Part shown: positions 16,693 to 32,921 of the stretch, piece by piece | Position numbering within the stretch: position 1 is the first letter of the stretch | How the letters are laid out: every line of letters begins with the position of its first letter | From: a virus | Lineage: Duplodnaviria; Heunggongvirae; Uroviricota; Caudoviricetes | DNA length: 37,692 nt | Strand: one strand, 5' to 3' | Virus record (IMG/VR): IMGVR_UViG_2541047799_000005 | Program-made: the position numbers and the translations under genes | The notes under the pieces: model-generated | The model's input: only the letters and a program-made list of their open reading frames with translations | Database searches by the model: none | Told to the model about the DNA's origin: nothing

Positions 16693-17118
16693 ATGGAAGG
16701 TACTACAATGGCTCAGGTTGCCATTTTTAAACAAATATTCGATAAAGTGCGAAATAATTTAAACTATCACTGGTTTTATTCTGAACTAAAACGTCACAAT
16801 GTCTCACATTACATTTACTATTTAGCCACAGAGAATATTCATCTTGTTCTTGAAAACGATAATACGGTTTTAATAAAAGGACAGAGTAAGGTTGTAAATG
16901 TAAGATTTTCAAAAAATAAATGCCTTATAGAAGCCACCTTAAAAGGATTCAAATCAGGAGAGTTATCATTTTACGAATACAGGAAAAATCTTGCTACAGC
17001 AGGGGTTTTCAGATGGATTACAAATATCCACGAAAACAAAAGGTATTACTATACCTTTGATAATTCATTACTCTTTACTGAGAACATTCAGAACACTACA
17101 CAAATATTTCCGCACTAA
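16693..17118 (+). CDS. Hypothetical prophage cargo protein (possibly DUF1398/YbcV-like)
   Basis: 141-aa AT-rich ORF after ylcI-like; family is a guess from context. Start could be the internal Met at 16708. Confidence 0.4.
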
Positions 17119-19359: not shown

Positions 19360-20442
19360 ATGAAAAAATTAACAGTGGCAATTTCTGCTGTAGCTGCATC
19401 AGTACTGATGGCGATGTCTGCTCAGGCAGCTGAAATTTATAATAAAGACAGTAACAAGCTGGATCTGTACGGGAAAGTTAATGCTAAGCACTACTTCTCC
19501 TCTAATGATGCAGATGATGGTGATACTACTTATGCCCGTCTTGGCTTCAAAGGTGAAACCCAAATCAACGATCAACTGACTGGTTTCGGTCAGTGGGAAT
19601 ATGAATTCAAAGGCAACCGCGCTGAATCTCAAGGTTCTTCCAAAGACAAAACCCGTCTTGCATTTGCAGGCCTGAAATTTGGTGATTACGGCTCAATCGA
19701 TTACGGCCGTAACTACGGTGTAGCATACGACATCGGTGCGTGGACTGACGTCCTGCCAGAATTCGGTGGTGATACCTGGACCCAAACAGATGTGTTCATG
19801 ACTGGTCGCACTACTGGTGTTGCAACTTATCGTAACAACGACTTCTTTGGTCTGGTCGATGGCCTGAACTTTGCTGCTCAGTATCAGGGTAAAAATGACC
19901 GCACTGACGTAACTGAAGCCAATGGTGATGGTTTCGGTTTCTCCACTACTTATGAGTATGAAGGATTCGGCGTGGGTGCAACCTATGCTAAATCAGATCG
20001 CACTGACGGTCAGGTCGCCTATGGTAAGAGCAAATTCAATGCCTCCGGCAAAAATGCGGAAGTATGGGCTGCAGGCCTGAAATATGATGCGAACAATATC
20101 TATCTGGCTACCACATATTCTGAAACTCAGAATATGACCGTTTTTGGTAATAACCATATTGCAAACAAAGCACAAAACTTTGAAGCAGTAGCACAATATC
20201 AGTTTGACTTCGGTCTGCGCCCATCTGTTGCTTACCTTCAGTCAAAAGGTAAAGACCTTGGTGTTCATGGTGACCGAGACTTAGTCAAGTATGTCGATGT
20301 CGGTGCTACTTACTACTTTAATAAAAACATGTCCACTTTTGTTGATTACAAAATCAACTTAATTGACGATAGTAAGTTTACCAAAACAGCTGGTATTGAT
20401 ACTGATGACATCGTTGCTGTAGGTCTGGTTTACCAGTTCTAA
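19360..20442 (+). CDS. nmpC: Outer-membrane general porin, NmpC/Lc family (phage-borne OmpC-like)
   Basis: 360-aa ORF with signal peptide ending AQA and porin hallmarks ([17 protein letters not shown]..., C-terminal ...VAVGLVYQF); matches recalled DLP12 NmpC / PA-2 Lc; opposite strand to Q and the lysis genes. Confidence 0.85.
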
Positions 20443-23444: not shown

Positions 23445-24053
23445 TTATTGCAACAGATTCTGACGGAAATATGGTAACACACGACTCCACTTATCATCCT
23501 GCCACGGTTGGAATTTTACATGCGCCGTTTCTCTGGCAAGGATTTCTCGCGCCCTGTTGAGTATCCGAGGATATTCTTGTTCGATTGAAGTGAATCTACC
23601 TGCTTCGCGATGCTCTGCGACCTGAAGAAGGGGCGTAACGTTCTGGCAGGCGGTTAACATCGTATCACTTGCTCGCCATAACCAGGCGAGTGTGCAAAGT
23701 TCGTTATCAGTGAATTGTTTTGTGATTGGGGATTGTTGAACTTCTCGATCGAGAATATCCAGAACCCAGCGGCGGAATTCTTTGGCCACAGGAGTACGAG
23801 CAAACATGGCGATCAAATGGGCTCCGCGAAGGCTAAATACTCGAGACTCCTGCATTCCACGAGGGGTGGTCACTTTGACCACCCTTGTCATCATATCTGT
23901 GAATTCATCTGAGTGCCGAGAGTAAATGCGCTGAACTGCTTTATCGTCCGCATATTCCAGTGCTAAACCAACTTCAGTGGCAGTAAGCCAAATTCTGTTA
24001 TTGTGGCAAATCGGGGTAAACGTCGTTTTGTGGAATGCTAATTGAGTAGTCAT
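23445..24053 (-). CDS. Bro-N/AntA-like DNA-binding protein (antirepressor or Roi-like)
   Basis: 202-aa ORF; N-terminal pattern F..F..I...IWLTATEVGLALEY...AKEFRRWVLDIL is typical of Bro-N/antirepressor N-domains; nin-region location like HK022 roi. Confidence 0.45.
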   Translation of the reverse strand: MTTQLAFHKTTFTPICHNNRIWLTATEVGLALEYADDKAVQRIYSRHSDEFTDMMTRVVKVTTPRGMQESRVFSLRGAHLIAMFARTPVAKEFRRWVLDILDREVQQSPITKQFTDNELCTLAWLWRASDTMLTACQNVTPLLQVAEHREAGRFTSIEQEYPRILNRAREILARETAHVKFQPWQDDKWSRVLPYFRQNLLQ

Positions 24054-24472
24054 AGTATCACCTCATCAGGTTAACCATCACCACCAACGACGCCAATCGA
24101 CTGGTGGTGAACTGTGTAAGGTTGGCGTAACCGGCTACTCAAACCCGGCGCTTCCGAAGAAGCCCTCACACAGCCCACCATAATTTGGGCATAGCCGTGC
24201 TTAGCGCACAAAAAAACCGCTTAACGCGGTATGCGTTGAGTAGTATCCCGGGACGCCAATCCCGTGTGCCGATTTTGCGGCAACGCACAGAATATAGCGC
24301 CGGATAAATCATGTCGTCAACCCCAGTAAATGGACACCATGATGATCACATCCATAGCTGCTACAACAGTTACAACTACCTCAGGCCAAAACATAACGAT
24401 TTCCATATCACCTTTAGCCGCCAGACGAATAGAGACTCCCAATTCTGGCTGTCGAAGTAAAACACCGAATGT

Positions 24473-24557: not shown

Positions 24558-25866
24558 ACCCCACCACCGGGTGTTCAGGCCGACAGTAACTATATTATTC
24601 CCTACTGATTTTTGAAAATCAAAGGTCTTTATACGTCACACGAGAGCAAATATTTCCGAAGAAGAAACCTTTCACCTTGAAAGGATAAAGAGTTCATTTC
24701 ATAAATTGAAATATTCAATAAGAATATTGCAAAAAATGAAATTATTTACTAGCGAGTCTATCTAACTGATAATTATGAAGATTGTAAGCGGTAGCAATCA
24801 CCCGCATACACATTGAACAGGATTTAATACAAAACGTCTTAAATTGTCCGTAAGGAATAGCACGAATGACTCAAACTCCTCTATTACTTGCAATCATATT
24901 TTTATTGGTTGTTCTTGTTCTTTATATAGCTGCAATCAAACGCATCAAAAAAATACAATTAGAATTAAGTGATAGCAATCAAAAAAATGAAGAATACAAA
25001 TCTCGCTTTGCAGATTATTTTAATGTAGAAGAAGAATGTAAGAAGCTTATTGAGAAAACAGAGCAAGAATGCTCCATAATAAAAGAAGAATCCCTAAAAG
25101 TAAAAGAAAATGCCAATAATGAACTAACAAACACCATTGAAAAAATGGATGGTATCAATAAACAAATCCAAGAGCTAAGAAGAACTTATAAAGAGAAGAA
25201 AGAAATATATGATAAACTAGTAAGGCAAATTTCTATTTATTCAGAAGATGTTGAGCTAGCCGAACTAGGATTTTACGAACCTCATTTTAATTTTGAAGAT
25301 TCAGAGCAATTTAAAAACAAAATAAAATCCATCAGGGATGAACAGAAATTAATGCTGCGGGATAAAACCCACTCTGGCGCAGTATATTGTACAACCCAAT
25401 GGACTGTTGAAGGCTCTCGAGCAGAGGGTAAAAAAATGACAGACAGAAATATCAGGCTAACTACTAGAGCATTTAATAATGAATGTGATGCTGCAATTAG
25501 CAATTGCACGTGGAAAAACATCACTAAAATGGAAGAACGCATCACAAAGGCATTTGAGGCCATAAATAAACTAAACGAGCAAAATCACATATATATAAAC
25601 ACTAAATACCTCAATAAAAAACTTGAGGAATTGTGGCTTACCCATGAATATCGTGAGCAAAAACAGAAAGAAAAAGAAGAACAGGCAGAAATAAGGGCAC
25701 AAATGAGAGAGGAGGAGCGTGCACAACGAGAAATAGAAAAGGCCATGCAAGACGCAGAGGCAGAAGAGCGCCGTTATAAAAAAGCAATTGAAGCTGCAAG
25801 AAAGGAAATGGAAAAAGTTACTGGTGACATGAAGCAGCGCCTCGAAAATCGGGTAATGACTCCAAC

Positions 25867-26370
25867 TTACTGATAGTGTTTTATGTTCAGATAATGCCCG
25901 ATGACCTTGTCATGCAGCTCCACCGATTTTGAGAACGACAGTGACTTCCGTCCCAGCCTTGCCAGATGTTGTCTCAGATTCAGGTTATGCCGCTCAATTC
26001 GCTGAGTGTAACGCTTGCTGATTACGTGCAGCTTTCCCTTCAGGCGGGATTCATACAGCGGCCAGCCATCCGTCATCCATACCACGACCTCAAAGGCCGA
26101 CAGCAGGCTTAGAAGACGCTCCAGTGTGGCCAGAGTGCGTTCACCGAATACGTGCGCAACAACCGTCTTCCGGAGCCTGTCATACGCGTAAAACAGCCAG
26201 CGCTGGCGCGATTTAGCCCCGACGTATCCCCACTGTTCGTCCATTTCCGCGCAGACGATGACGTCACTGCCCGGCTGTATGCGCGAGGTTACCGACTGCG
26301 GCCTGAGTTTTTTAAATGGCGGAAAATCGTGTTGAGGCCAACGCCCATAATGCGGGCGGTTGCCCGGCAT
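25867..26370 (-). CDS. insB: IS1 InsB (made as an InsAB' frameshift fusion)
   Basis: 167-aa ORF ...[62 protein letters not shown]... matching recalled IS1 InsB. Confidence 0.95.
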
Positions 26371-26564
26371 CCAACGCCATTCATGGCCATATCAATGATT
26401 TTCTGGTGCGTACCGGGTTGAGAAGCGGTGTAAGTGAACTGCAGTTGCCATGTTTTACGGCAGTGAGAGCAGAGATAGCGCTGATGTCCGGCGGTGCTTT
26501 TGCCGTTACGCACCACCCCGTCAGTAGCTGAACAGGAGGGACAGCTGATAGAAACAGAAGCCAC
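26289..26564 (-). CDS. insA: IS1 InsA
   Basis: 91-aa [46 protein letters not shown]... (zinc-finger InsA). Confidence 0.95.
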
Positions 26565-27392
26565 TGGAGCACCTCAAAAACACCATCATACACTAAATCA
26601 GTAAGTTGGCAGCATCACCGAAAATCGCATTGCCGAACTAGAACAGAGTTTGTCGCAGGCTGAATCAAAGCATCAAAGAGCATTATCCATGGCACAACAA
26701 ACCAAACAAGGTCATGTTTATATTATTTCGAACATAGGTTCTTTTGGGGAGAATGTTTATAAAATAGGCATGACACGACGTCTTGATCCGCAAGACCGTG
26801 TAAATGAGCTCGGTGATGCATCTGTTCCTTTTATTTTTGATGTACATGCCATGATTTATTCGGAGGACGCTCCATCATTAGAAAAAAAACTACATGATGT
26901 CTTCGATAAAAAGAGAGTCAATCTTGTAAATCGTAGAAAAGAGTTTTTCTATGTTACTCTGGATGAGATCAAAGAAGCTGTTAAAAAACACTCTGATTCA
27001 GAAATTGAATTTATTGAGACAGCAGTCGCAAAAGACTTTAATGAGTCATTGGCTATTCGTAATCATGAAAATAAAAAAAGTGACAACAGCAACTCATCAA
27101 TTATACCTGAGCGAAAAACCCCAGAGTTTGCAGATGCAATTTAATTAATTTGTAGTAGCAATAAAGCAGGCATCGTTGAGAATATTTTGTCAGCGATGCT
27201 TACTTCTCTAACAAAAACGGTGATTACCAACGAACTAACGGACTTCAGGTAATCATAAGACAAATGGAACGACTCTCCGGTGATTAGATCCCTGCAATAA
27301 CAGTAATTTTCTACTAACTGAAAAATCTTTAACTGCCGCTCCTATTTCTAAGCTGACTGCTAGATTACATGGTGTGTTACCGATGAAAACCG

Positions 27393-29405: not shown

Positions 29406-29945
29406 TCATATCGCCCCCAGCATGGTAGTAACCATCGCCATCAATGGACCAGCCAGATCTGGGTCCACACGAAACATCGATACAATACCTTCACTAATTT
29501 CCTTCAGTTTCTGGTGGCGTGGTGCGTTGAGAATGACAGCCTGTTTTGCCTCACTGAGTTCCTTTTCCATTTCAGCCAACCTAGCCATGAAGCTATCCTG
29601 CTCAACCAGGTAACCGCGATATTCCAGCGGTAGTACCGCCAGAATTGCCGGGGTCAGTTCACGCACGTTATTTCGGTATTTTTCAGAATCGAATTTGTTA
29701 TCGAGGAAGCGGAACAGCTTCTGGCGTGCACGGCTGACATCATCAGGGAAATCGATGGTGCCGCCGCCCTGCTCCCGATACTCATTCACAATGAGTGTGG
29801 CAACGACATCCTGATTATCTACAGCCGACCAGGCGCGGACGGCATCACGGATTTTTTCGTGGCCTGGCACCTGTTTTGTTTGAGAACGATTTATCACCGC
29901 AGTCGGGCTAAATCCGCTAGTCTGTTGGTATGGAAGTGGTTGCAT
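29406..29945 (-). CDS. cII-position regulatory protein (possibly the 186-type / CP76 CII family)
   Basis: 179-aa ORF between cro and O on the early-right strand; family assignment is from position and recollection only. Confidence 0.35.
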   Translation of the reverse strand: MQPLPYQQTSGFSPTAVINRSQTKQVPGHEKIRDAVRAWSAVDNQDVVATLIVNEYREQGGGTIDFPDDVSRARQKLFRFLDNKFDSEKYRNNVRELTPAILAVLPLEYRGYLVEQDSFMARLAEMEKELSEAKQAVILNAPRHQKLKEISEGIVSMFRVDPDLAGPLMAMVTTMLGAI

Positions 29946-30014: not shown

Positions 30015-30245
30015 TTAAGCTGCGTTCTTTTCGGTGTGTGGAAACAACTTCGGAAGATCCGGGCGAATCTGGTATGCCTTCACTACTCCACCAGTAGCCG
30101 TAACAATGCTGCCGACATGTTCAGGGGATACCTTTGCTTTGTTGTGAAGCCACTTATAGACGGCCTGCTGTGAAACTTCGCAAGCAGCGCCCAGTTTCTT
30201 TTGTGAACCAACGATATTGATCGCTGTTTTGATAGCTGGGTTCAT
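30015..30245 (-). CDS. cro: Cro-like HTH repressor
   Basis: 76-aa ORF with HTH KLGAACEVSQQAVYKWLHN; GGAGG RBS; divergent from the cI-like gene across an operator region. Confidence 0.75.
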   Translation of the reverse strand: MNPAIKTAINIVGSQKKLGAACEVSQQAVYKWLHNKAKVSPEHVGSIVTATGGVVKAYQIRPDLPKLFPHTEKNAA

Positions 30246-30349
30246 AACAACCTCCGTGGTTAATTTGAATCAAGATTAAAACTATGGTTGTTTTTAGTCA
30301 ACAACCATTTTCGTTTGATGGAATAAAACCTTGGTTGTACATTTGGACT
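30246..30349. promoter_or_regulatory. OR region: pR (minus strand, -35 TTGACT, 17-nt spacer, -10 TAATCT) overlapping a 17-bp operator AAAACAACCATAGTTTT; further ACAACC/GGTTGT half-sites; presumed pRM
   Basis: Minus-strand reading ...ggttgTTGACTaaaaacaaccatagtttTAATCTtgattc... about 25 nt upstream of the cro ATG. Confidence 0.55.
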
Positions 30350-31039
30350 ATGAAAACAACACTCTCAGAAAGACTTAAAGAAGCCAGATTAGCGCGAGGC
30401 CTTACACAAAAGGCGCTTGGGGATTTGGTCGGGGTTAGCCAGGCTGCTATTCAGAAAATCGAAACAGGGAAAGCTAATCAAACAACTAAAATCGTGGAGA
30501 TCGCGAACGCTTTGGGTGTGCGCGCAGAATGGTTATCTTCTGGCGTTGGAAATATGTCAGACAGTACAGTGCAACCAATACAATCAACTGTCAGCCATTC
30601 CAAATACTTCAAGATTGACGTTCTTGATATAGAAGTCAGTGCTGGGCCGGGAGTCATCAACCGTGAGTTTGTAGAAGTTCTACGCTCGGTTGAGTACTCG
30701 TTTGACGATGCTCGTCACATGTTCGATGGTAGGAAGGCGGAAAATATCCGCATCATTAACGTGCGTGGTGACAGCATGTCAGGAACGATCGAACCAGGTG
30801 ATCTGCTGTTCGTTGATATCACAGTTAAATCTTTCGACGGTGATGGTATCTATGCGTTTCTGTACGACGACACAGCCCATGTAAAGCGCCTGCAAATGAT
30901 GAAGGATAAGCTGCTGGTCATCTCTGATAACAAAAGCTACTCACCGTGGGACCCGATCGAGAAAGACGAGATGAACCGGGTGTTCATCTTCGGTAAGGTT
31001 ATTGGGAGCATGCCGCAGACGTACAGGAAGCATGGTTAA
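30350..31039 (+). CDS. cI: CI-type prophage repressor (HTH_XRE plus S24 LexA-like autopeptidase domain)
   Basis: Start chosen at MKTTLSERLKEARLARGLTQKALGDLVGVSQAAIQKIETGK...; C-terminal ...GDSMSGTIEPGDLLFVD...HVKRL... is S24-like; no SD before this ATG, suggesting a leaderless start as for lambda cI. Confidence 0.8.
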   Translation: MKTTLSERLKEARLARGLTQKALGDLVGVSQAAIQKIETGKANQTTKIVEIANALGVRAEWLSSGVGNMSDSTVQPIQSTVSHSKYFKIDVLDIEVSAGPGVINREFVEVLRSVEYSFDDARHMFDGRKAENIRIINVRGDSMSGTIEPGDLLFVDITVKSFDGDGIYAFLYDDTAHVKRLQMMKDKLLVISDNKSYSPWDPIEKDEMNRVFIFGKVIGSMPQTYRKHG

Positions 31040-31120
31040 TAATTAGCCTGTAGCTTTTTAAGGCACACTCTTTTCAAGAATATTAAATAGAACACTATAT
31101 GGCATAAACAAGGACTTAGG

Positions 31121-31594
31121 ATGGAAAAGCCTAGCTTCCCACCTCTTCTTACAGCAGGATTTCATGATATGGATAGTGATGGCATCAAGTCTCTTTGTGT
31201 CGACACCTTCCCAAAATCCGTTAGAAGAAGTATGCTATACTGTAATTTTATACAGCTTATTGAGCAATTTAAACTTGTTAATCAGCAGTGTCTATGTTTC
31301 TCTGAAGTGTGGATCGATGGTTCATTCACTACAGAGAAACCTGAACCTGATGACATAGATATACTCGTGGTCGTCGATTATTTGGCCCTAAACTCTTTGC
31401 CAAACACGCTGATGCCATTGGTCAGCTCATTGTTAAATAGAGATTTTATTAAAGAAAACTACAGCATTGACGTTCTTTTGCTGCCTGAAAATCATCCAGA
31501 AATCGATTATAGTGAAAGGCGAAGTTACTGGAGAGGGTGGTTTGGTTTTGATCGGAAGGAGAATCCTAAAGGCCTCGTGAGGGTAATGTTATGA
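31121..31594 (+). CDS. Small protein with a minimal nucleotidyltransferase-fold signature; first gene of a two-gene cargo operon at the rexAB position
   Basis: 157-aa ORF containing WIDGSFTTEKPEPDDIDILVVVD (G67-S68, nine residues, then D-I-D-I), the Pol-beta-type NTase pattern; AGGA RBS; AT-rich; stop overlaps the next gene's start (ATGA). Confidence 0.5.
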   Translation: MEKPSFPPLLTAGFHDMDSDGIKSLCVDTFPKSVRRSMLYCNFIQLIEQFKLVNQQCLCFSEVWIDGSFTTEKPEPDDIDILVVVDYLALNSLPNTLMPLVSSLLNRDFIKENYSIDVLLLPENHPEIDYSERRSYWRGWFGFDRKENPKGLVRVML

Positions 31595-32523
31595 GCGAAG
31601 AAAAAACATTCAACTCCCTCAAGGAGCGAATTGCGTTCATTCAACGCGATGTGGATCTGCTTGCTCAAAATAAGGGGAGATCATTTGCTGATGACATTAT
31701 ATTTAGATCACTTGACTCCCATCTGAGCGATCTCCGAGAGAGACAACGTGCAATCGATAACCAACATCCTTTACGTGATTTCATGGAGTTGAGATTAAAA
31801 GGTGTTTTGGTCGATTTCGGGTCTATTCCGTTAGATATTCTATCTGTAATTTCAGGTAATCTCGCATCCCTTGTACAGAAAGCAGTTTACCGACTTGGAT
31901 CTGGGAAAGATTCTAGTCGTGTGCCGATTGATGTTAAAAAATCATTAGACATGAGATTGGCAGACTTGCGTCCAGGTTCGACGAAGTTAGGTGTTACTTT
32001 TTCTACTGGTTCTTGCGAGCTCATCGAAACAGTATCCAGTCATGCTGTTAAGGAGATTTTTGCACTACTCTCATCCATTGATGAAGAAACATTCACGGCT
32101 AAAATTGCCGAAATTGGTTCGCAATCAACAGCTAACCTAAAAAACATCATAAATGAGTGCGAAAAATATAGTCTTAACTTTGATCTTACTTGGATTGGAC
32201 CTTTAAGTGATGGTACCAGACAAGTGTCAATTTCTTCAGAAGATATAAAAAAACTGAATGCTCGCTTAGCTTTAACGAAGGTCATTCAGCTACCGGATGA
32301 GCATATATCAGGCGAACTTGCTATTTTATCCATGTACGGGAAATTGGAGATTGCAAGCGAGCTTGGAAAAATAAAGGCTTCTTATCCGATTGATATGTTA
32401 GGAGAAATTCAAAGTAAATATAAAGTTGGTGAACGAATATCGCTCGTAGTAAGCGTTTCTGAGATTCACAATGAAAGATTAGGAACATCACGACGTAACT
32501 ACATGGTTAAAAAAATCGAATAG
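31591..32523 (+). CDS. Hypothetical 310-aa soluble protein, translationally coupled partner of the NTase-like gene
   Basis: ATGA start/stop overlap at 31591-31594; no TM segment and no domain I can recognise by eye; AT-rich; followed by an intrinsic terminator. Confidence 0.5.
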   Translation: MSEEKTFNSLKERIAFIQRDVDLLAQNKGRSFADDIIFRSLDSHLSDLRERQRAIDNQHPLRDFMELRLKGVLVDFGSIPLDILSVISGNLASLVQKAVYRLGSGKDSSRVPIDVKKSLDMRLADLRPGSTKLGVTFSTGSCELIETVSSHAVKEIFALLSSIDEETFTAKIAEIGSQSTANLKNIINECEKYSLNFDLTWIGPLSDGTRQVSISSEDIKKLNARLALTKVIQLPDEHISGELAILSMYGKLEIASELGKIKASYPIDMLGEIQSKYKVGERISLVVSVSEIHNERLGTSRRNYMVKKIE

Positions 32524-32530
32524 TGATGCT

Positions 32531-32559
32531 ACCCGGCCACCGTGCCGGGTTTTCTTTTG
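32531..32559 (+). terminator. Intrinsic terminator ending the cI-cargo transcript (tIMM-like)
   Basis: ACCCGGC-CACCGT-GCCGGGT hairpin followed by TTTCTTTTG. Confidence 0.65.
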
Positions 32560-32639
32560 CCCTCCCCTCATCACACACACCGTTAAAAAAACCACCATAA
32601 CCTCGCTTCAGTTATCGCTATGCGATTCAAGTCACAAAA

Positions 32640-32730
32640 TAAATCCATCCTAAATACAACCAGTTATATCTAAAACAACCAATAAAACAACTTTTGTTGT
32701 TGACGATAAAACAACTATAGTTTTAAATAA
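32640..32730 (+). promoter_or_regulatory. OL region with candidate pL (-35 TTGACG 32700-32705, 17-nt spacer, -10 TTAAAT) overlapping operator AAAACAACTATAGTTTT; upstream palindrome ACAACTTTTGTTGT
   Basis: Near-identical to the pR/OR1 unit (TTGACG-ataaaacaactatagtt-TTAAAT versus TTGACT-aaaaacaaccatagttt-TAATCT). Confidence 0.55.
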
Positions 32731-32921
32731 GTTCATCGCAACAACACAACGATACGGCAACTACCTGATTCACCGTTGCGATGACCGCTTAGATCCGCAG
32801 CTTGAATTTCAGCAGGCTTCGGGGAGTGCGAGGGATGAAACGGACGCGTGAACGTCGGTGTGACCAGCTGAAATCAACTCAACATTTCATACCTTAGTCG
32901 CTTCAACGAGGCGGCTTAGTT

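Follow-up and report, generated by a model that had tools for sequence, protein, structure and literature searches.

PDC systems are cassettes found within BREX, DISARM or type I restriction-modification (RM) loci (Payne et al., 2024, bioRxiv 10.1101/2024.01.29.577857), of which 145 have been released as 'guilt-by-embedding' candidates, experimentally untested; one of them, PDC-M63, is cassette CAS_00189, for which no domains are described (bioRxiv 10.1101/2024.01.29.577857). We analysed a gene pair, here termed A and B, that follows the cI-like repressor gene in the virus record IMGVR_UViG_2541047799_000005, a 37,692-nucleotide stretch of DNA (the window, meaning the whole stretch analysed) that is an Escherichia coli lambda-like prophage. 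The pair is a plain member of PDC-M63, already catalogued and computationally flagged, and its exact sequence is common in public genomes. What is new here is the anatomy of PDC-M63, a nucleotidyltransferase (NTase) joined to a partner with a modelled oligonucleotide/oligosaccharide-binding (OB) fold, and its preference for the slot behind the repressor. With a rough probability of 0.55, a little better than even, we propose that the pair is a lysogen-expressed anti-phage (exclusion or abortive-infection) module of toxin-antitoxin-like build, acquired horizontally as PDC-M63 cargo.

Membership of PDC-M63 is supported over nearly the full length of both proteins. A matches the PADLOC model of PDC-M63A (PDLC04744, 7.4e-43), its residues 1-156 aligning to positions 1-148 of the 152-position profile, and B matches six PDC-M63B models (best 4e-42, residues 25-309); gene order and adjacency are those of PDC-M63, both matches are full-length, and no structural difference was found. 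Every one of the 34 diverse homologues of A and the 109 of B matches the same models, and the PADLOC matches of B beyond PDC-M63 are confined to M32 and M02. Under its accession WP_001288169.1, B is scored by DefensePredictor as a 'predicted novel defence gene' (log-odds ~5.8), and neither this protein nor WP_000414677.1, which is A, is among the 94 units tested in that study (PMC13092281). In PHROGs both proteins belong to function-unknown families, a literature search returned no paper that mentions DUF6932, WP_000414677.1 or WP_001288169.1, and the papers on phage mEpX1 make no statement on the A and B genes. An earlier reading of the sequence alone had called the pair undescribed and unplaceable in any named family; the PADLOC matches and the DefensePredictor entry contradict this, and the profile searches proposed in that reading (Pfam and PADLOC) assign A to DUF6932 and both proteins to PDC-M63, an untested defence candidate.

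The gene pair and its products

The two genes are laid out as follows.

31121..31594, + strand: gene A, 157 aa; DUF6932 minimal (MNT-type) nucleotidyltransferase, PDC-M63A
31591..32523, + strand: gene B, 310 aa; the partner protein, PDC-M63B

The list of open reading frames (ORFs) and the sequence agree with the sequence-only reading on both coordinates and on the 4-nt overlap (ATGA, 31591-31594) between the stop codon of A and the start codon of B. A ribosome-binding site (RBS), AAGGA, lies 6 nt ahead of the ATG of A and a second, GAGGG, 9 nt ahead of the ATG of B, and translational coupling of the two genes is therefore plausible. Both are real genes and not chance ORFs, because homologues are numerous (129 clusters for A and 69 for B in the first search, and 277 representatives of the B family at 50% identity); the full-length B-family members listed are nearly all 300-330 aa long and free of fusions. 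The pair has a GC content of 0.399 (A) and 0.389 (B), with 0.39 and 0.32 at third codon positions, against 0.458 in cI, 0.505-0.527 in gam, bet and exo and 0.504 in the entire window; it is thus more AT-rich than the flanking repressor and recombination genes, as had been noticed before, and by this composition looks foreign and horizontally acquired. The earlier proposal of horizontal acquisition is further supported by the slot boundaries seen against sister phages (see below). No membrane-like segment was found in A or B by Kyte-Doolittle averaging (highest 19-residue mean 1.26 and 1.54, respectively), which agrees with the description of B as soluble, and an Rfam scan of the entire window gave no match in or near the pair.

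Protein A is a minimal nucleotidyltransferase (MNT)-type NTase of the Pol-beta superfamily and the only recognisable enzyme of the pair. Its Pfam family is DUF6932 (4e-26), and Polbeta and the pol-beta palm NTase families match below threshold, while a search of A against PDB sequences gave no match. Residues 67-80, GSFTTEKPEPDDID, comprise G67-S68, nine residues and D78-I-D80, in agreement with the motif hG[GS]-x9-13-Dh[DE] of Pol-beta MNTs, and the third carboxylate, D117, is found on a later strand, in IDVLL. G67, S68, D78 and D80 do not vary among 34 diverse A homologues, down to 35% identity, and at least 90% of these retain D117; G13, R36, W64, T71, K73 and P76 are conserved as well, as is a C-terminal motif, W137-R138-G139...R145...K150-G151 (WRGWFGF..R..PKG), which is absent from classical MNTs. 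An AlphaFold model made from the alignment of these homologues (pLDDT 96, pTM 0.89) has the NTase alpha-beta fold, and its nearest solved folds are MNT-type enzymes, including MNT antitoxins (8xeh_E, 7ae2_B, 5yep_A, 1no5). The motif, the confident fold and the intact catalytic residues bear out the sequence-only assignment of A to the Pol-beta NTases, including the structure prediction by which it was to be checked, and since the full set of catalytic and nucleotide-binding residues is retained, A is probably a catalytically active NTase.

The 157-aa start of A is correct, because the N-terminus (FPPLL..GFHD) is conserved. A is annotated too short in phage PhiR30_1 (141 aa; locus L001, 4582-5007) and in Erwinia phage vB_EhrS_59 (119 aa; locus L024, 2645-3004), and tblastn finds the complete 157-aa frame in both; judged by these frames, the two annotations are start-codon miscalls.

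Other systems built around an NTase were compared with the pair. AbiEii/MenT (DUF1814) modules are associated with abortive infection, tRNA 3' ends being the substrate of some members; like the present pair they are two-gene modules with a Pol-beta-fold NTase as the active component, but A is half their size, is encoded first instead of second and matches none of their Pfam or PADLOC models, and B lacks an AbiEi-type winged-helix antitoxin domain. AbiE/MenAT was rejected on these grounds: A matches DUF6932 only (beside the sub-threshold Polbeta hit), no PADLOC AbiE model is found, and the gene order is wrong. CBASS was rejected as well, A being an NTase core only, without the C-terminal helical domain, and no effector gene being present.

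Protein B, as the sequence-only reading had it, contains no recognisable sequence domain: alone it has no match in Pfam (E up to 1), no meaningful match in NCBIfam and no match among PDB sequences, and as a 109-sequence profile it returns noise alone from the PDB (keratin, capsid proteins). A Pfam scan of the 109 family members gave isolated hits, two different HEPN families among them, about as often as chance would produce. The AlphaFold model of B (pLDDT 69, pTM 0.41) is good over residues 150-310 and poor over 60-150, to which no fold is assigned, and its layout comprises an N-terminal helical hairpin, a conserved middle module (~59-150) and a C-terminal OB fold (~229-309). The C-terminal ~80 residues, modelled as the OB fold, resemble SSB, RuvA and the anticodon domains of tRNA synthetases, and Foldseek of B against the PDB gives OB-fold matches that are weak (E 0.014 or worse); on this moderate-confidence model, B ends in an OB fold of the type that binds single-stranded nucleic acid.

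Near-invariant positions in the B family are an acidic residue at 63, G77, L81, G129, S130 (invariant), G176 and W201. Such sparse positions do not form an enzyme active-site pattern, and by the family alignment B is without a conserved catalytic motif. The two most conserved stretches, ELRLKGVLVDFGSIPL (66-81) and DMRLADLRPGSTKL (120-133), are alike, with the common pattern [ED]-x-RL...GS..L, and hint at an internal duplication in the middle module. This module (~62-148; window 31774-32034) matches the N-terminus of PDC-M32A (positions ~5-92 of 375) in 23-31 of the 109 family members (E 7e-8 at best) and appears to be shared among candidate defence proteins; a middle-module profile run against an index of 5.8 billion proteins retrieved three fragments of the same family only and no other architecture.

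A described system close in build is MNT-HEPN (MntA/HepT), where MntA nucleotidylates HepT and inactivates it. The present pair resembles it in that a small NTase gene of the GS...DxD...D type comes first and is overlapped by the second gene. It differs in its partner, which has 310 aa and a modelled OB fold and lacks a HEPN domain or an Rx4-6H motif, and in A, which has an extra conserved N-terminal segment, the C-terminal WRGWFGF..R..PKG motif and a Pfam family of its own, DUF6932. MNT-HEPN was rejected because B has no Pfam HEPN match, the family consensus holds no R...H motif and the fold matches are to OB folds; a HEPN identity for B was rejected also, the two isolated weak hits among the 109 members being at noise level. 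BstA, said to have been described by Owen and colleagues in 2021 as a single ~300-aa protein with an N-terminal KilA-N-type DNA-binding domain, was rejected given the absence of a Pfam match of B up to E 1 and PADLOC matches limited to PDC-M63, M32 and M02. The pair thus belongs to no characterised system, and is most like the two-gene NTase modules in which a small enzyme is paired with a tightly coupled partner, borne by mobile elements and present in defence contexts.

These comparisons bear directly on the main rival explanation, a type VII-like toxin-antitoxin or addiction module whose main effect would be to stabilise the prophage or another mobile element, without acting on phages directly. 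In such a module nucleotidylation by A would hold B, or another target, in an inactive state, and a cell that lost the element would be harmed. The small NTase encoded first, the 4-nt overlap and the match of the nearest folds of A to the MNT antitoxins of MNT-HEPN are as this explanation would have them, but B is not a HEPN protein by Pfam, by motif or by fold, and we consider the explanation unlikely, while noting that it partly overlaps the defence model.

The slot behind cI and the distribution of the pair

The sequence-only reading had placed the pair in the slot equivalent to that of lambda rexAB, on the same strand after cI and ahead of a terminator and a pL-like region, and the pair does occupy this position. 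The elements of the slot are listed below.

30350..31039, + strand: cI-like repressor (HTH_3 + Peptidase_S24), from Pfam HTH_3 (6.5e-13) and Peptidase_S24 (1.5e-18)
31040..31120, + strand: spacer of 81 bp with RBS, from the sequence
31042..32531, + strand: variable cargo slot (moron cassette), 1.49 kb from the cI stop codon to the backbone terminator, from sister-phage comparison
32531..32559, + strand: intrinsic terminator of the backbone, hairpin and T-run, shared by sister phages and closing the cI-cargo transcript
32650..32745, no strand assigned: OL/pL-like region with repeated AAAACAAC/GTTGTT half-sites, which also occur between cI and cro

The context is a lambda-type immunity and early-left region in reversed map orientation, with cI, A, B, Kil, Gam, Bet and Exo following one another on the + strand and cro on the - strand; the neighbours include the replication genes O and P and, at the cII position, a protein with a YdaT domain. 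cI has 229 aa in its RefSeq form, from window position 30350, whereas the mechanical ORF starts at 30284. A promoter and terminator scan of the + strand of the cI-A spacer found no terminator and no promoter matching at least 9 of 12 consensus positions. The terminator behind B, a hairpin at 32531-32550 with seven pairs, six of them G-C, followed by TTTTCTTTTG, falls inside 32532-32900, a stretch that is 83-99% identical across the five sister phages compared. Homology to these phages ends at 31038-31041, at the cI stop codon or 1-2 nt beyond it, and restarts at 32530-32532, where the hairpin starts. Since homology resumes at that point, the terminator is part of the conserved backbone and not of the cassette, and any cargo in the slot is therefore positioned for read-through from cI. 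Given a spacer free of such signals and a backbone terminator after B, we infer co-transcription with cI, and the pair is most likely expressed in lysogens from an extended cI transcript.

The half-site AAAACAAC/GTTGTT, obtained from 8-mers common to 30200-30360 and 32560-32800, is repeated at 30246-30360, in the cI-cro interval, and at 32672-32745, and these repeats plausibly fit OR and OL operators. An OL/pL function of 32650..32745 is plausible by analogy with lambda-type synteny, kil, gam, bet and exo coming next. Of the terminator and pL/OL-like region claimed on sequence grounds, the former was thus found, and the latter is plausible, its best pL candidate (TTGACG-N17-TTAAAT) being only a weak match to consensus.

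The slot is a cargo hotspot. It holds 119 bp without an annotated gene in PhiR34_1 (phage Turner gives the same short two-piece match), a lipoprotein gene in PhiR26_1, three hypothetical genes in PhiR70_1, GevT/GevA, an annotated toxin and antitoxin, in PhiR47_2, a similarly sized pair encoding a 353-aa protein and an ASCH protein in phage 4A7, and the present A-B pair, at 99-100% identity, in PhiR30_1. GevT/GevA and the 4A7 pair share with the present pair the slot boundaries, the orientation and the arrangement as two overlapping genes; they differ in that the proteins are unrelated, and GevT/GevA is annotated by its depositors as a toxin-antitoxin pair whereas the present pair is hypothetical.

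Lambda RexA/RexB offers a parallel in position, with two genes after cI, on the same strand, ahead of the terminator and pL, and with presumably the same expression logic. RexB is a polytopic membrane protein. The present proteins differ in having no sequence or profile similarity to RexA and RexB, no PADLOC RexAB match and no membrane segment, and RexAB was rejected, there being no PADLOC or Pfam match beyond PDC-M63 and DUF6932 and no hydrophobic segment in A or B. That cargo adjacent to cI can be defensive is shown by an independent case (PMC13092281, Table S6).

At all 18 loci examined, which come from several bacterial groups and cover A identities of 35-100%, the gene that follows A belongs to the B family, and in most cases the two overlap; every B assignment was upheld by BLAST or by comparing profiles (probability 100%). 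In a set of 50,697 phage records, A and B turn up together in six, which stand for three phages, and neither gene occurs without the other. A related-locus search from an alignment of close homologues gave only six genomes. The identical proteins are WP_000414677.1 (A) and WP_001288169.1 (B) in RefSeq, and 96-98 of 5426 complete E. coli genomes have the identical pair on the chromosome; phage PhiR30_1 carries it as well. A look-up of a truncated A variant (P0144) returned no match. At one of the 18 loci, in E. coli OkiPb01716 (NZ_AP042701.1; locus L031, 2298-4961), an IS3 element sits in the 3' end of A, leaving a 154-aa product with an altered C-terminus, and separates A from an intact B by ~1.3 kb, a natural uncoupling of A and B in a viable strain.

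The pair directly follows a prophage repressor, in the same orientation, at 10 loci or more, in E. coli, Salmonella, Erwinia, Silvania, Citrobacter and Biostraticola, and the repressor and cro genes differ between them. The repressor-slot loci and the other settings of the pair are as follows.

Repressor slot: the present window, the 118UI prophage (L011) and PhiR30_1
Repressor slot: E. coli, lambda-type cI with lambda-type Cro and N gene
Repressor slot: Salmonella P22-like prophage
Repressor slot: mEpX1, with a VT1-Sakai-like cI
Repressor slot: Erwinia phage vB_EhrS_59
Repressor slot: Silvania, Citrobacter and an Enterobacteriaceae genome, with short HTH repressors lacking an S24 domain
Repressor slot: Biostraticola prophage with an S24 repressor
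Other: Tn3/mer element in Pseudoalteromonas
Other: beside imuA-imuB-dnaE2 in Bermanella
Other: adjoining the integrase of an island downstream of smpB
Other: adjoining a NACHT STAND gene
Other: DUF927-primase element in Serratia

Strict adjacency on such varied elements argues for an obligate, highly mobile two-gene module that markedly prefers a lysogen-expressed slot, whatever the immunity region around it. Strict linkage and carriage on many kinds of mobile element are also what an addiction module would display. A further explanation, that A and B form a counter-defence or regulatory pair working for the phage, which would, for example, modify host immune components or nucleic acids and so favour lysogeny or induction, draws on the position beside the immunity region, which phage regulatory and exclusion genes also use, and on the ability of NTases to inactivate proteins by nucleotidylation. 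We regard it as very improbable: a phage-specific helper would fit neither the occurrence of the pair outside prophages (Tn3/mer, imuA-imuB-dnaE2, the smpB-downstream island integrase) nor that of homologues inside host defence loci (bioRxiv 10.1101/2024.01.29.577857).

A proposed role in defence

The proposed defence role rests on the locus context and on two independent predictors, PADLOC and DefensePredictor. In such a module A and B would be made in a fixed ratio through translational coupling and would form a complex, with B as sensor or adaptor whose OB fold would bind phage nucleic acid or protein. A, the sole catalytic component, would transfer a nucleotide to the 3' end of bound RNA or DNA or to B itself, where the invariant G129-S130 motif of the middle module is a possible target, and this transfer would switch the system. 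Both the complex and the target of nucleotidylation are suggested by the domain anatomy.

A more tentative proposal, which we consider possible at best, is that the pair represents an uncharacterised immune system in which an MNT-type NTase is combined with an OB-fold sensor in place of the HEPN toxin. Here the ligand recognised by B would be single-stranded nucleic acid of the phage or an intermediate of replication or recombination, and A would nucleotidylate an RNA or DNA end, or B, and thereby halt infection. Were such a system directed mainly against temperate phages, the negative result obtained with virulent phages, described next, would be explained.

Several observations weigh against a defence role or its mechanism. 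Deletion of PDC-M63AB from a prophage of E. coli NILS69, whose copy was not checked for sequence identity to the present pair, changed neither plating nor liquid infection with ten virulent dsDNA phages (PMC12409345). This study is the only published test, included no temperate phages, and worked with a panel in which 83 of 93 phages were unable to adsorb (PMC12409345); because the panel was virulent only and so many phages did not adsorb, the negative result lowers confidence but is not decisive. The GenBank record of PhiR30_1 leaves both genes as 'hypothetical protein', whereas a sister record names GevT/GevA, which suggests that the pair did not emerge from the screen of the PhiR depositors; the PhiR phages reportedly originate from work of Brenes and Laub in 2025. 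As for mechanism, B shows no detectable domain of toxin or nuclease type, the most conserved region of B (residues 60-150) is modelled with a pLDDT of only 39-57, the OB match is to a model of moderate confidence and OB folds may bind proteins and sugars too, and the A-B complex and the nucleotidylation target are proposals from the anatomy. The guess of a defence role made from the sequence is reasonable, and two independent predictors arrive at the same; the only published test is negative.

The NILS69 deletion has a double bearing on the addiction module. The lack of a defence phenotype in the native host is in line with it, but the deletion was possible in the first place, which argues against strong addiction, though both genes went together (PMC12409345). 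Many toxin-antitoxin systems also defend against phages, and to that extent this rival merges with the proposed anti-phage module.

Other cargo of the prophage and implications

The window carries further features, listed here by position.

16693..17118, + strand: DUF1398 protein
19360-20442, + strand: full-length Gram-negative porin, 360 aa (Porin_1, 2e-151), among minus-strand late genes
23445..24053, - strand: Bro-N/P22_AR_C antirepressor ORF, with C4 and isrK just upstream
24100-24185, - strand: C4 antisense RNA (Rfam, 74.8 bits)
24210-24282, - strand: isrK (Rfam, 58.7 bits)
24866..25873, + strand: N-terminal part of PD-Lambda-1, DUF4041 (PADLOC positions 1-330 of 491, 5e-102)
25867..26370, - strand: IS1 transposase ORF, within the split PD-Lambda-1
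26650..27144, + strand: C-terminal part of PD-Lambda-1, T5orf172/MUG113 (positions 338-485 of 491, 9e-87)
29406-29945: YdaT_toxin-domain protein at the cII position (8.5e-30)

The gene for PD-Lambda-1 (SNIPE, a membrane-bound GIY-YIG nuclease defence) is apparently split by IS1 (window 24866-27144), and this second defence gene of the prophage is therefore probably inactivated. The C4 and isrK RNAs together with the antirepressor ORF resemble an antisense-controlled antirepressor module of the P1/P7 or Gifsy type, here in a lambdoid prophage.

The 360-aa porin is probably a lysogenic-conversion porin, and the presence of such cargo raises the question of whether A and B, too, serve lysogenic conversion unrelated to phages, for example as a split NTase that would modify a small molecule (such as an antibiotic) or host RNA and so alter the physiology of the host. 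We think this improbable: A is without the C-terminal domain by which ANT enzymes bind their substrate, an OB-fold partner would be a better fit to a nucleic acid or a protein than to an antibiotic, some loci adjoin defence genes such as that of the NACHT STAND protein, and homologues were catalogued for their embedding in BREX, DISARM or RM loci (bioRxiv 10.1101/2024.01.29.577857).

The anonymous PDC-M63 entry is now linked to a concrete anatomy, with a complete NTase centre, a modelled OB fold and an invariant G-S motif, and culturable carriers suited to experiments are at hand in PhiR30_1, mEpX1 and Erwinia phage vB_EhrS_59. Should A and B prove to defend lysogens, an NTase-plus-OB-fold design would be added to the known immune mechanisms, and the pair would provide a second worked example, after RexAB, of how lambdoid phages use the slot adjacent to the repressor.

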